Positions 3,779 through 17,280 of a DNA stretch of 29,012 nucleotides are shown piece after piece. The notes below the pieces were generated by a model. That model was not told the DNA's origin. It did not search any database and saw nothing but the letters and a program-made list of their open reading frames with translations. Made by a program: the position numbers and the translations under genes. Position 1 is the first letter of the stretch; every line of letters starts with the position of its first letter. Origin of the DNA: an uncultured bacterium (GTDB lineage: Bacteria; Actinomycetota; Actinomycetes; S36-B12); NCBI GenBank assembly GCA_903954205.1, contig CAJBMR010000261.1, forward strand, positions 1-29,012, read 5' to 3'.

Positions 3779-5041
3779 ATGGACCTCGCCACCGCCTTCG
3801 CCACCGTGGTGCCAGCCGAACGCCGAGTCGGCTTCAAGGCATACGACGGCTCGAGCACCGGCCTCATCGGCGCCGAGGTGGTCCTAGAGATCACCAGCCC
3901 GCGCGGTGTCCACTACATCGCAGCCTCGCCCAACCAACTTGGCCTTGCGCGCGCCTACGTCACCGGTGACCTCGAGATCCACGGCGACGTCTATGAGGCT
4001 CTCAACCGCCTCTACCCCATGCCCCTTGACCACGTGTCCGTGGTGGACCGCGCACGCCTGGTCAAGCGATTCGCCCGCGAGGCACTCGTGCGCCCCGAGC
4101 CTCCGGCGCAGGAACGAGCCCTCGGAGGCCGCCGTCACTCCAAGCGGCGTGACGCCGAGGCGATCCATCACCACTACGACGTGAGCAACACGTTCTATTC
4201 GATGGTGCTGGGCCCATCGATGGCCTACACCTGCGCCGTCTTCCCCAACAAAGAGGCATCGCTCGAGCTCGCGCAGGAGGAGAAGTTCGACCTCGTGTGC
4301 CGCAAGCTCAACCTCCAGCCGGGCATGCGCCTGCTCGACGTCGGCTGCGGCTGGGGCGGCATGGTGCTGCATGCCGTCAAGAACTACGGCGTATCCGCCA
4401 TCGGCGTGACTCTGTCCCAGCAGCAGGCGGAGTGGGGCCAGCGGGCCATCGAGGATGCCGGCCTGGGCAATCAGGCCCAGGTCCGCTTCAGCGACTACCG
4501 CGATGTCAAGGAAACCGGCTTCGACGCGATCTCCTCGATCGGGCTCACCGAGCACATCGGCCGCGCCAACTACCCCTCCTACTTCTCCTTCCTCTACGGC
4601 AAACTCAAGCCGGAGGGGCGACTGCTCAACCACTGCATCACCCGGCCGGACGGTAAGTGGCCCGCGCTCTACAAGCGCAGCTTCATCAACCGCTACGTCT
4701 TCCCTGACGGCGAGCTCACCCCGCCCGGACCGATCATCACCGACATGAACGAGGCCGGATTCGAGATCCGCCACGAGGAGAACCTCCGCGAGCACTACGC
4801 CCTGACGCTCAAGCACTGGTGCGAGAACCTCGAGCGCAATTGGGACGCCTGCGTGGCCGAGGCCGGCCTCCCGACCGCGCGCGTGTGGCGCCTCTACATG
4901 GCGGCATCGCGCCTGGGCTTCGACATCAACACGATCCAGCTGCACCAGGTCCTCGGCGTCAAGGTCGGCGAGCGCGGCAAGTCCGGTATCCCGCTGCGAG
5001 TTTCGGGTGAGACCTGGTCCCTCACCGCCCCCGAAGGCTGA
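3779..5041 (+). CDS. cfa: Cyclopropane-fatty-acyl-phospholipid synthase-family SAM methyltransferase (Rv3720/BfaB/TmsB-like)
   Basis: AIHHHYDVSN.FY..VLGPSMAYTCA, LLDVGCGWGG (SAM motif I), GVTLS..Q, FDAISSIGLTEHIG, RYVFPDGEL, HYALTL..W; SD GGAGGA upstream. Confidence 0.88.
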   Translation: MDLATAFATVVPAERRVGFKAYDGSSTGLIGAEVVLEITSPRGVHYIAASPNQLGLARAYVTGDLEIHGDVYEALNRLYPMPLDHVSVVDRARLVKRFAREALVRPEPPAQERALGGRRHSKRRDAEAIHHHYDVSNTFYSMVLGPSMAYTCAVFPNKEASLELAQEEKFDLVCRKLNLQPGMRLLDVGCGWGGMVLHAVKNYGVSAIGVTLSQQQAEWGQRAIEDAGLGNQAQVRFSDYRDVKETGFDAISSIGLTEHIGRANYPSYFSFLYGKLKPEGRLLNHCITRPDGKWPALYKRSFINRYVFPDGELTPPGPIITDMNEAGFEIRHEENLREHYALTLKHWCENLERNWDACVAEAGLPTARVWRLYMAASRLGFDINTIQLHQVLGVKVGERGKSGIPLRVSGETWSLTAPEG

Positions 5042-9690: not shown

Positions 9691-10008
9691 ATGGCACCGC
9701 AGACGCCTCGACCCGCGCTGAGCCGCGCCCCCGATGCTGAACTCCACCCCGTGAGCGGGCGACCCCTGCCCGCGCCCGTGCCCGGCGGCGTCAAGGAGAG
9801 CAAGGAGAAGCCGAAGGCCAAGAGCCTCAAGGCCGGCAAGGGCGCGACATCCGCCGACGCCATCACAGGGCCCGCCAAGGACAAGTACGTCGACCTCGGC
9901 GCGCGCGTGCCAAAGTCGGTGCGCAAGCGACTGCGAGCCGAGGCGAAGGCACAGGCGCTCGCACCCGACGAACTGCTCTCCCGCATCCTCGACGCCTACC
10001 TGCCATAG
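9691..10008 (+). CDS. Small protein with a disordered N-terminal tail and a predicted C-terminal ribbon-helix-helix domain (ParG-like architecture)
   Basis: SD GGAGG 5 nt before the ATG. Pro/Lys-rich low-complexity N-half, then YVDLGARVP (strand), KSVRKRLRAEAKAQ (helix), PDELLSRILDAYL (helix). Confidence 0.65.
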   Translation: MAPQTPRPALSRAPDAELHPVSGRPLPAPVPGGVKESKEKPKAKSLKAGKGATSADAITGPAKDKYVDLGARVPKSVRKRLRAEAKAQALAPDELLSRILDAYLP

Positions 10009-10090
10009 GCCGAGCGCACCGCCTCGCATACCTGCCGTAGGCCGAGCATCGCCTCGCCTACCTGCCGTAGGCCGAGCGCATCGCCTCGCA
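9994..10090 (+). repeat. Three tandem 30-32 bp repeats, each with a GCCTAC-N5-GTAGGC-type hairpin
   Basis: Units at 9994-10025, 10026-10055 and 10056-10087: GC(C/A)TACCTGCC(A/G)TAGGCCGAGC(GC)A(C/T)CGCCTC. The first unit overlaps the RHH gene's last codons and stop. Confidence 0.9.
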
Positions 10091-13383: not shown

Positions 13384-15698
<2,315 letters not shown>

Positions 15699-15787
15699 GG
15701 CTCACGCTGTCAGAGGTGGGATCTACGCTCGCGTTATGCACGCGATGCGAGCAGCGGCCGTCGAATGCAGTCGCCGTCCGCCGATTG

Positions 15788-15943
15788 CTATCCACAGGTG
15801 CACTGCGTCGCACGCTGGCAACCTTGCCAGCACCCGCCGTCATCCACAGGTTCGTCAAGGTCGACGCTGGCAACCTTGCCACGGGCCGGCGTTATCCACA
15901 GGTACGCCGAATCTGCCGCTGGCAACCTTGCCAAGGGCCGGTG
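15788..15943 (+). repeat. Three 52-bp-phased units: DnaA-box-like 9-mer (NNATCCACA)GGT - N13 - CGCTGGCAACCTTGCCA - N10
   Basis: ATCCACAGGT at 15790, 15842 and 15894; CGCTGGCAACCTTGCCA at 15813, 15865 and 15917. Spacers are constant in length and differ in sequence. The period is not a multiple of 3, so the array is non-coding. Confidence 0.92.
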
Positions 15944-16004
15944 TGAAGCGCGGTATTCGAGGCGGAAGGCCGGGATGGGGCAACCCCGCTAGTCGAGGTC
16001 GCGG

Positions 16005-16091
16005 TCAGCGCGTGAGAGCGGCCACGATGACGGCAGCAACCAGGAGTACGAGGACCCCTACGGTCACGAGGCGTCGCGCGCGGTGGTCCAT
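16005..16091 (-). CDS. Unannotated 28-aa single-pass membrane peptide MDHRARRLVTVGVLVLLVAAVIVAALTR
   Basis: Translated by hand from ATG 16091 to TGA 16005: basic N-terminus, about 19 hydrophobic residues, C-terminal Arg. TAGAGT -10 box exactly 6 nt upstream, as for neighbouring leaderless genes. Confidence 0.7.
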   Translation of the reverse strand: MDHRARRLVTVGVLVLLVAAVIVAALTR

Positions 16092-16144
16092 ATGACCACT
16101 CTAGGGATGCCCGACCGCGCATACCGACCCGCTAGCCTGCCGGT

Positions 16145-16402
16145 GTGGACGCACGCCTCACGATCGAGCAGATCGAGGCTGACCCTGCCCTGCGCAGCCG
16201 GGACGACGACGGAGTAGCGGCGATCGCCACAGGCACCGTGCTGTGGATTTTCGCGCTCGTCGCGGTGCTGGTCTGGGGGTCCGCATGGGGCGTGGACACT
16301 GAGCGGTGGACCCTGGTGTGCGCCATCGGGGCTCTACTGGGGATCCCGGGGCTGGCCCTCGTGCTCGGCCGGCGCCACAGGCGCCGCTCGCGTCAGTCCT
16401 GA
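16145..16402 (+). CDS. DUF2530-like small membrane protein
   Basis: DP.L...DDDGVAAIATGTVLW..AL, W..VCAIGA.LGI.GL plus an Arg-rich tail; position next to DUF3027 as in Rv0879c/Rv0877; TAGCCT 6 nt before the GTG. Confidence 0.8.
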   Translation: MDARLTIEQIEADPALRSRDDDGVAAIATGTVLWIFALVAVLVWGSAWGVDTERWTLVCAIGALLGIPGLALVLGRRHRRRSRQS

Positions 16403-17280
16403 TCGGCTGAGTCGGACGCCTCGTCGGCATCATCCGAGGCGTCAGCCAACTCCTCGCTAACGACGAACTCCTCCACGGTGGCCGCAATGTCCTGCGTCAC
16501 GGCTTCGACAACCTCGTCGACGATCGCATCCGCCTGGTCCAGGTCGAGAGCGTCGAAGCCCACGAAGTCCTGGGTGGGGGCGCCCACCGGCTCCTTCTCG
16601 GCGAGGGCGATCTCGGAGTGAGCTCCGCACCCAAAGGCCAGTGACACGACGCAACCATCGGCAGGCGACATGTCGTGGGCGCAGACCCCGAAGGCCTGGC
16701 TGAGGGGACCGCCGATGGGCAGGAGGAATCCGCATGATGCGCACGTCTGCGACACCGAGCGCGCCATCGGTGCCTCCGGGCCGCGCTCGCCGGACCACCA
16801 ACGGTCCGCAGCATCGTCGCGGCCGTGAGCCGAGAGCACGCGGGATCGGCCGAGACCGATCTCCCACTGGCTGGGGTGGACGGGGCTGCGGTCGGTCGCA
16901 CCCTCCAGGTCATACAGCCCCGTGAGACCAGCCGTGAGTCGCGGGTCGTCTGCGGGCGTCGGCCAGATGGTGCCGACGGCCAGGTCACCGGGACGCACGC
17001 GCTCAGCCCACGGCACCCAGGTCGGAGCCACAAGGGCCTCGGGTCCGGGCAGCAGGACCACCTCGTCCACGGTCGCGGCCTTGGCTCGCGGTGCGCGAGC
17101 GACGGTCACCGACCAGCGCCAGCCGACGTACGCCGGATCAAGGCACGCGAAGTAATGGGTGGCCACGCGCTCGTCGTCGAACTCGACACCGACGTGATCG
17201 CCGACCGTCCCCCAGGGCGCGTCCTCCTCGGCAGCGACGCGAGCAAGATCGGTGGACTTCGAGAGCACGGTGTCAGACAT
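16393..17280 (-). CDS. DUF3027 domain protein (Rv0877-like, 295 aa) with an acidic C-terminal tail
   Basis: ATHYFAC.DP.Y.GWRW.VTVAR, TVDEVVLLPG..AL.AP.WVPW.ERVRPGDL, EIGLGR.RVLS..GR..A..RW..G..GP, C.SCGF, FGVC.....PADG.VV...FGCGAHS. Confidence 0.9.
   Translation of the reverse strand: MSDTVLSKSTDLARVAAEEDAPWGTVGDHVGVEFDDERVATHYFACLDPAYVGWRWSVTVARAPRAKAATVDEVVLLPGPEALVAPTWVPWAERVRPGDLAVGTIWPTPADDPRLTAGLTGLYDLEGATDRSPVHPSQWEIGLGRSRVLSAHGRDDAADRWWSGERGPEAPMARSVSQTCASCGFLLPIGGPLSQAFGVCAHDMSPADGCVVSLAFGCGAHSEIALAEKEPVGAPTQDFVGFDALDLDQADAIVDEVVEAVTQDIAATVEEFVVSEELADASDDADEASDSADQD

Follow-up and report, generated by a model that had tools for sequence, protein, structure and literature searches.

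Architecture of the locus

The window, meaning the whole 29,012-nucleotide stretch analyzed here (contig CAJBMR010000261.1 of assembly GCA_903954205.1, positions 1 to 29,012), belongs to a metagenome-assembled genome (MAG) of an uncultured actinobacterium, which amounts to 2.45 Mb in 534 contigs and is 88% complete. An MFS transporter gene (14514-15698, + strand; Pfam MFS_1) and a convergent gene for a 28-aa membrane peptide (16005-16091, - strand) enclose the two elements studied in this work. These are a promoter of the PafBC type (15708-15729, + strand) and, behind it, an array of three head-to-tail 52-bp units (15788-15943, + strand), each joining a DnaA-box-like sequence to a short palindrome. 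The array is one member of a dispersed repeat family that is also found in and around a DUF222-HNH nuclease gene, and its units may serve as protein-binding sites that gate a damage-inducible promoter.

The units were read from the sequence as unit 1 (15788-15839), unit 2 (15840-15891) and unit 3 (15892-15943). Tandem Repeats Finder (TRF) reported the array with a period of 52, 2.5 copies and a score of 160. The left block ATCCACAGGT is identical at 15790, 15842 and 15894. The right block TGGCAACCTTGCCA is identical at 15816, 15868 and 15920, where 0.08 matches are expected by chance and 0 of 100 shuffles reached the observed count. The 13-nt spacer between the blocks is almost completely different from unit to unit. 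An initial annotation, made from the letters alone, had described an exact 52-bp period, three units, two invariant blocks and a diverged spacer, and the sequence read bears out each of these points. Since the blocks are identical while the filler has diverged, selection acts on the blocks and not on the filler. Judged from the sequence, the three 52-bp repeats are real and selected. Within the window, the composite unit is found at 15788-15943 only.

In unit 1, the DnaA-box-like CTATCCACA followed by G (15788-15797) is separated by a 19-nt gap from GGCAACCTTGCC (15817-15828), which is embedded in an 18-bp palindrome, GCTGGCAA-CC-TTGCCAGC. Unit 2 carries TCATCCACA plus G at 15840-15849 and GGCAACCTTGCC at 15869-15880, and its spacer has a nearly identical counterpart in a single unit of relative L036, whose MFS protein is only 78% identical. 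Unit 3 carries the perfect box TTATCCACA plus G at 15892-15901 and GGCAACCTTGCC at 15921-15932. The whole 2.45-Mb assembly has only 16 perfect TTRTCCACA boxes, this one included. The description of the right block as a 14-bp palindrome holds as far as the inverted repeat with 6-bp arms (TGGCAA/TTGCCA) is concerned; the CC centre is not palindromic, and the part that is constant throughout the family is only GGCAA-NN-TTGCC.

A PafBC-type promoter in front of the array

The published PafBC consensus, tGTCgg(N10)tA(N3)T, describes a hybrid promoter that combines a -26 element with a normal -10 and lacks a -35 (PMC8635444). Positions 15708-15729 fit this consensus with the -26 element TGTCAG (15708-15713), a 10-nt spacer and the -10 element TACGCT (15724-15729). 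A sigma-70 -35/-10 pair was looked for in the same region, and none was found. By its motif, 15708-15729 is a PafBC-type (RecA-NDp) promoter. The initial annotation had missed it, and 58 nt (15730-15787) separate its end from the first unit. In four genomes of the genus, recA is preceded by TGTC[AG]GACC...TACGGT, and two WYL-domain proteins of 334 and 349 aa, candidates for PafB and PafC by size, are encoded in the genome.

The promoter accompanies the family. A relaxed PafBC motif is located on the same strand before 19 distinct arrays at distances of 28-121 nt, often exactly 51 nt, with a background of 0.0018 per 260-nt window. It precedes nearly all arrays outside the nuclease gene, including the arrays of relatives at the window locus, and it lies on the appropriate strand at the glmM locus, too.

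An ATG at 15736-15738 (+ strand) follows the -10 element by 6 nt, which is a leaderless geometry, and opens a 119-aa open reading frame (ORF; 15736-16095) in which the three units are read in three different frames. No Pfam match was found for this ORF. At the ATG position, some relatives have ATG, GTG or TTG, and others have ATC, ATA, GAC or ACG. Across arrays, a start codon 6 nt past the -10 is frequent without being universal, and the frame through the units varies by locus; therefore, translation is not the conserved feature. The sequence TTATGCACG at 15734-15742, proposed earlier as a weaker DnaA box, did not hold up, as it is conserved in no relative, overlaps the ATG 6 nt past the -10 and sits in a hairpin loop. 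The arms around this loop form a small inverted repeat, GCTCGC...GCGAGC (15727-15752, + strand; arms 15727-15732 and 15747-15752), which overlaps the -10 and the predicted transcript start. Its counterpart in L069, a close relative, is perfectly palindromic over arms of 11 bp, and the loop sequence is not kept. It is a possible operator or 5' hairpin of the transcript.

Two further PafBC-type promoters were noted in genome G000. On contig C258 (3182-3219), a 95-aa ORF has the motif upstream of it with a perfect SOS box, TCGAACATCTGTTCGA, right behind the motif, a textbook layout for dual damage control. On contig C89 (around 3001, - strand), the promoter of a Phd/YefM-like antitoxin gene is of the PafBC type, and the -10 is followed at 6 nt by a leaderless start.

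The locus in relatives

The interval between the MFS gene and the DUF2530 gene was compared among relatives, as the initial annotation had suggested. At least 8 relatives have an array at the same place, with 1-4 units and periods of 45, 51 or 52 bp. In four relatives without an array at the locus, the MFS stop and the peptide gene converge within 0-70 nt; one of these is G023, whose MFS protein is 96% identical to that of the window. The short interval in the array-less relatives indicates that promoter and array were inserted into a 3'-3' intergenic region, and close relatives differ by gain or loss of this insertion. DNA contigs of lake metagenomes reproduce the three-unit form, and one go-back joint among them is consistent with an extra unit.

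The same intergenic region is a hotspot of repeat expansion. Between the promoter and the units, relative L070 (about 3870-3950) has four copies of an ~18-bp repeat, GGATGGCCGTCGGGAAGC, and relative L064 (reverse complement) has four copies of an ~16-bp repeat, GGGAGCGGGTGCAGAA. Both are unrelated to the units.

The peptide gene at 16005-16091 is the first gene met by any transcript running through the array. It encodes a single helix, has a leaderless-type -10 and is divergent from DUF2530. It is conserved in all relatives examined, with the array present or absent, and is a neighbor of the repeat family and not a part of it. It is probably a genuine small membrane protein overlooked by ORF callers.

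A dispersed repeat family restricted to one genus

The core TCCACAG-N19-GGCAACCTTGCC recurs at two further places in the same MAG. Contig C93 holds three copies at a 45-bp period and two or three inverted copies 1.1 kb away, and contig C284 holds units at its broken end, downstream of a glmM-like gene. The source genome has at least 3 loci with units, and relatives have 2-6. Units were found in 18 of 24 sampled genomes of the genus and in 0 of 16 genomes of other genera; G001, G008, G014 and G023 have no array. An exact-pattern scan of one genome per species, covering 185,579 species, returned arrays only in MAGs labelled Candidatus Nanopelagicales, Actinomycetota or 'uncultured Actinomyces'. 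The hits in other phyla were few and were single chance matches.

Across the family, the period takes values of 44, 45, 50, 51, 52, 62 and ~140 bp. The gap between box and palindrome is constant at 18-19 bp, and the other distances vary. The 52-bp helical phasing on which the initial annotation had built is therefore not conserved, neither at the window locus (45, 51 or 52 bp) nor elsewhere (44, 50, 62 or ~140 bp). A dispersed family without phasing was the finding that the initial annotation had named as speaking against its reading. The dispersal goes part of the way in that direction. The palindrome arms are invariant, the centre is CC, GG or CG, and the polarity of the palindrome relative to the box can flip. 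A flip of this kind would be expected of a symmetric dimer site.

In G004 (L080, L081 and L082), the module occurs as a dispersed element of ~330 bp, composed of ~40 nt, the PafBC promoter, 51 nt, 1-3 units and a tail of ~115 nt containing a hairpin with a 13-bp stem. The element is present on at least 3 contigs at 83-89% identity. When three G004 copies were aligned in search of mobile-element ends, shared flanks were seen, with no terminal inverted repeats and no target duplications. Judging from these copies, some spread of the module as a unit has occurred.

The DUF222-HNH nuclease gene as the home of the family

The statement that no matching gene accompanies the array is true within the window, where a DUF222-HNH ORF was sought at the locus and none was found. 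It does not extend to the family, which is tied to a DUF222-HNH gene on contig C93. There, a 555-aa ORF includes the three 45-bp units in its reading frame and translates them as 3 x TVHSDAGIPSGNLAA. The protein has a DUF222 domain (Pfam E 1.3e-11) and a sub-threshold Pfam HNH match (E 0.11), and it aligns over its full length with a canonical DUF222 paralog (hhalign probability 98.6%). The nuclease motif Cys / D-H / N / H is invariant in 12 orthologs. Searches of NCBIfam, PADLOC and PDB sequences with the protein (P0001) gave no match. In the predicted structure, the DUF222 part has a predicted local distance difference test (pLDDT) score of ~90 for residues 10-240, and the C-terminal half is poorly modelled from 12 sequences. 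Comparison of the predicted DUF222 fold with the PDB (Foldseek) and a wide VIA search gave nothing above helical-bundle noise.

The gene is a resident of the genus. The order PhyH, HNH, M20 is conserved across the genus, and the gene is mostly single-copy. The same PafBC promoter and leaderless mRNA are found in 17 of the 18 orthologs examined, and the 18th runs off the end of its locus. Two or three inverted units are located directly upstream of the HNH-gene promoter, an architecture that recurs in many species, and the disordered linker that joins the DUF222 domain to the HNH domain contains another 1-3 units, in frame. All genomes of the genus with any unit (19/19) have one in the HNH gene. 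G014 and G023 have an HNH ortholog without the repeat segment and have no unit anywhere in the genome.

The orthologs at the greatest distance (41-44% identity) carry the unit in the same linker, in inverted orientation (in G012 and G022, opposite to transcription). Retention of an inverted unit at this distance indicates a constraint on DNA, and not on RNA or protein. A protein-level role of the 15-aa repeat (VHS....GNLA) as the primary function was considered and rejected, since the satellites use other frames and the G012 units are inverted.

These genes resemble a known group. In mycobacteria, PafBC (RecA-NDp) regulon promoters and the damage-inducible REP13E12 / DUF222-HNH genes have been described (PMC8635444, PMC6789036, PMC10589994). 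The promoter found here shares with the mycobacterial PafBC promoters the 22-nt architecture, with the -26 GTC and the -10 and no -35, and in the genus it drives the DUF222-HNH gene and recA. Unlike the mycobacterial REP13E12 / DUF222-HNH genes, the window copy is a promoter without the gene. Few actinobacterial genes are induced as strongly by DNA damage, or duplicated as often, as the DUF222-HNH (13E12) genes, to which, to our knowledge, no function has been assigned.

The left block matches the DnaA boxes of the organism

The boxes around dnaA on contig C383 are TGATCCACAG, TTATCCACAA, TTGTCCACAG (twice), TTATCCACAG and GTGTCCACAG, with the pattern TTRTCCACAG. Genome-wide, 14 of the 16 perfect TTRTCCACA sites are followed by G, and this extra G is shared by 87 of 105 units, which read YRTCCACAG. 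The left block, proposed as a DnaA box by the initial annotation, is therefore a credible DnaA box of this organism, as it matches the dnaA-flanking boxes including the extra G.

A connection between such boxes and DUF222 genes is also seen outside the repeat family. On contig C213, a second DUF222 paralog has a single box 33 nt upstream of its PafBC element. The motif RTCCACA was then counted near 28 DUF222 genes from 28 genomes across the class (L109-L138). The 250-nt upstream windows contain 17 occurrences, and the other 71 kb contain 14 (Poisson P ~2.5e-13), which is an enrichment of ~12-fold. The reversed motif gave 3, and shuffles averaged 1.4 and never exceeded 6. The boxes are present at 9 of the 28 genes, 46-191 nt before the start, often as 2-3 boxes at 46-114 nt, and about half of the 28 genes have a PafBC-type motif directly upstream. 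By these motif counts, the association of the DnaA box with the DUF222 promoter is general in the class, and the genus has elaborated it into the tandem composite unit.

Two more perfect DnaA-box pairs outside the dnaA region were observed in G000, on contig C346 (2322-2341) and contig C422 (2448-2488). The boxes of one pair are 11 bp apart. They may mark promoters regulated by DnaA, or they may belong to a split origin.

The palindrome and excluded classes

The invariant arms, the variable centre and the flipping polarity support the earlier view of the right block as a putative dimer site. The more specific comparison to LacI-family operators fails. The operator pattern, a 14-18-bp palindrome TGnnAnCGnTnnCA, has a central CG, whereas the window centre is CC, and in the family the outer T is conserved at 61% and the outer A at 35%. 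LexA was rejected as the palindrome binder since the canonical SOS boxes of the genus (TCGAAC-N4-GTTCGA, e.g., upstream of recA) differ from GGCAA-NN-TTGCC. No restriction-like avoidance of the palindrome was seen, with non-array GGCAANNTTGCC sites at background level in array-less genomes.

A CRISPR array, for which 23-47-nt repeats, spacers of at least 21 nt and cas genes are expected, was also rejected. The variable parts are 13-19 nt and often identical between units, units lie in frame inside an ORF, and there is no RNA family match. A permissive Rfam search of 15000-16800 gave only chance microRNA-type hits. Folding with alifold and mutual information over 105 distinct units gave only a trivial GGCA/UGCC mini-stem with no covariation, and the unit RNA folds are no more stable than shuffles (mean z-score -0.35).

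Proposed function of the units

On balance, we consider it somewhat probable that the units are sites for DnaA and a dimeric protein that gate a damage-inducible promoter module, and that the window copy is a gene-less satellite of this module. The analysis shows how the units are built, that they are dispersed, that they go with the promoter and with the HNH gene, that their left block equals the local DnaA box and that they are conserved as DNA; the binding by DnaA and a dimer and the gating of transcription are what we infer. The module is specific to one genus of Ca. Nanopelagicales and consists of a PafBC-type damage promoter with 1-4 tandem units 30-140 nt downstream, each unit combining the DnaA box of the organism (Y-R-TCCACA-G) with the GGCAA-NN-TTGCC palindrome at the fixed 18-19 bp. 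Its home copy is the one around the resident REP13E12-type DUF222-HNH nuclease gene. The units would act as double-stranded sites, with DnaA on the left block and the dimeric protein on the palindrome. Once bound, they may gate the adjacent promoter in response to DnaA or replication status, either by looping or as a roadblock. At the nuclease gene they would act on the promoter from upstream, whereas the satellite units would form a roadblock downstream of it. For the window copy, the predicted start of the gated transcript is near 15736, and the transcript would continue into the 28-aa peptide gene that converges on it. Selection at the DNA level is supported by the retention of the blocks across three frames, in coding and non-coding settings, and inverted in a 41%-identical ortholog.

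Several observations weigh against this proposal. Positions 1-2 (TT) of the unit box are loosely kept (first position, C 59 / T 32; second position, T 61 / C 42), so that many units would be weak DnaA boxes at best. A candidate gene for the palindrome binder was sought, and none was found. The palindrome never stands alone in the source genome, where all 9 GGCAANNTTGCC sites lie inside units. The arrays precede the promoter at the HNH gene but follow it in the satellites, so that no single gating geometry fits both, and the HNH gene works without units in the relatives G014 and G023. The satellites are mostly in convergent intergenic regions, and together with the near-identical G004 copies with shared flanks, this looks selfish rather than like a host function. 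Expression was judged from assembled Logan contigs of two RNA libraries, from which neither start nor strand is provable, and they contain a single low-depth contig that spans 15564-15778 and runs on into a first unit; it could be DNA carry-over or MFS read-through.

Alternative explanations

Four alternatives were weighed, and in decreasing order of weight they are a neutral minisatellite, a titration locus similar to datA, recognition sites of the nuclease and a function at the RNA level. The first comparison is to the MIRU-VNTR (variable-number tandem repeat) minisatellites, the mycobacterial interspersed repetitive units (PMC3635867). Like these, the arrays are actinobacterial interspersed tandem repeats with units of ~45-55 bp, intergenic or in-frame, and with strain-variable copy number; the likeness is one of layout, and a relationship in sequence was neither sought nor seen. 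By the general description of such minisatellites, that is, tandem units of 40-100 bp at several loci with strain-variable copy number, the family belongs among them. The arrays found here differ in that their units are explicitly built as bipartite protein sites, that their promoter partner is always of the same kind and that a nuclease gene is linked to them. A stronger version of this comparison would make the family selfish and essentially function-free, with promoter and array being a decayed or deleted DUF222-HNH derivative copied to neutral sites. The blocks would then only seem conserved, through the youth of the copies or gene conversion. We regard this as unlikely. In its favor are units of 44-52 bp, copy numbers of 1-4 between relatives, an extra-unit variant in one lake metagenome, convergent and harmless intergenic sites, presence or absence differing between close relatives, the break of contig C284 at the repeat, and near-identical dispersed G004 copies sharing ~330-bp flanks. 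However, youth or gene conversion would preserve the spacers too, and in the window the spacers are fully diverged and the blocks exact. The blocks are also kept, in opposite orientation, in the 41%-identical ortholog, and the gap of 18-19 bp is fixed while all else varies.

The second alternative is the one put forward by the initial annotation, a chromosomal replication-control locus in which DnaA and a dimer are bound in helical phase, either as a titration or reactivation site similar to datA/DARS or as an origin remnant. DnaA-box clusters outside oriC include datA and DARS1/2 of E. coli, with an IHF or Fis site at datA and DARS, and clusters in Bacillus subtilis; DnaA is also known as a transcription factor at the dnaA, nrd and sda promoters. 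The arrays resemble the datA/DARS clusters in having co-oriented consensus-type boxes away from the origin together with the site of a second protein. They differ in that every box has its palindrome at an unvarying distance of 18-19 bp and such pairs recur in tandem, and in that they are multi-copy, variable in number and place, located behind a damage promoter and also inside a coding region. A role in replication control would be consistent with the left block being the local DnaA box including the extra G, with ~9 boxes added by the arrays to a genome with only 16 perfect ones, and with the conservation of the locus in at least 8 relatives. Yet the period varies even at the window locus, the family is dispersed with copy number and location differing between species, which is neither a single locus nor a fixed geometry, and the array is absent in the close relative G023 and in the complete-ish G001, G008 and G014. 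The cumulative GC skew is monotonic across the site with no switch (GC ~0.67), and dnaA with its box cluster is located elsewhere, on contig C383. On these grounds, and given the short interval of the array-less relatives, the site is not an origin remnant. The promoter and the tie to the HNH gene would be left unexplained. We therefore hold this alternative to be doubtful, a little more so than the minisatellite. The anatomy given in the initial annotation is right, and its picture of a unique, helically phased replication scaffold is largely replaced.

Alternatively, the units could be cis sites of a mobilization or nuclease machinery, where the palindrome, with or without the box, is bound or cut by the DUF222-HNH nuclease, DnaA is a host factor, and the satellites are non-autonomous targets or passengers. 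A role of DnaA as a host factor is known at the Tn5 outside end, and some HNH restriction enzymes recognize palindromes as dimers. The co-occurrence of units and HNH gene in the 19 of 19 array-bearing genomes of the genus, the inverted arrays bracketing the promoter and the DUF222-coding part, the invariant catalytic D-H, N, H and Cys residues in 12 orthologs, and the equal promoter-to-array distance of 51 nt at several unrelated loci would all agree with this explanation. It is nevertheless improbable: throughout the genus the HNH gene keeps its synteny and is mostly present once, and so is not hopping, neither terminal inverted repeats nor target duplications are seen at the G004 copies, the genus shows no avoidance of the palindrome elsewhere, and the DUF222 fold has no informative match.

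The last alternative, a damage-induced noncoding RNA or small leaderless protein with repeated motifs, possibly antisense to the 28-aa peptide gene in a layout like that of a type I toxin-antitoxin system or acting as a protein sponge, has in its favor a leaderless-geometry promoter that points into the array, a transcript that would converge on the peptide gene and an RNA-library contig (15564-15778) that continues into a first unit, but it is very improbable in view of the absence of an Rfam match or covarying structure, the non-conserved frame and the start codon missing in several relatives, the units opposite to transcription upstream of the HNH promoter and in G012/G022, the satellites that converge on unrelated genes such as glmM, and a peptide gene that is equally conserved without the array.

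Implications and comparison with other repeats

DnaA-box clusters, PafBC promoters, 13E12 genes and actinobacterial minisatellites are all of known kinds, and the new feature is their combination. In the literature searched, no description was found of tandem DnaA-box/palindrome units behind a PafBC promoter, both in and around a DUF222-HNH gene, together with a class-wide enrichment of boxes. The locus offers a bipartite DNA motif that travels with a DUF222-HNH gene and a promoter-site module that exists without the gene. The class-wide, statistically strong association of the DnaA box with DUF222 promoters is a third handle. If DnaA binds the units, the PafBC damage response would be linked to the control of replication initiation. 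On a more modest reading, streamlined freshwater Actinobacteria have a MIRU-like repeat family whose units are laid out explicitly as protein sites, and this explains assembly breaks in their MAGs.

A more speculative scenario, to which we give little credence, is that PafBC switches on the nuclease after damage and opens the satellites, and that the nuclease, bound to the palindrome, then meets box-bound DnaA on the arrays. Equally conjectural is the associated role of the arrays as damage-controlled DnaA sinks against re-initiation, or as nick or entry sites for recombination or replication restart. If the nuclease and DnaA did meet in this way, the units would be the first visible cis-partner of the DUF222-HNH (REP13E12) nucleases, and the class-wide boxes at DUF222 promoters would reflect a general coupling between this nuclease family and the replication initiator.

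The units were also compared with sopC of the F plasmid, which consists of 43-bp repeats, each with an inverted repeat. Both are direct repeats of ~45 bp, each with a short inverted repeat that a dimer could bind. In contrast to sopC, the arrays have no attached partition or initiator gene and are chromosomal, dispersed and partly coding. The window does contain a ParA/RHH-like gene pair at 8.9-10.1 kb. This pair has its own repeats, three tandem 32-bp copies downstream of the genes at 9993-10090 (TRF score 154), which are unrelated in sequence to the array.

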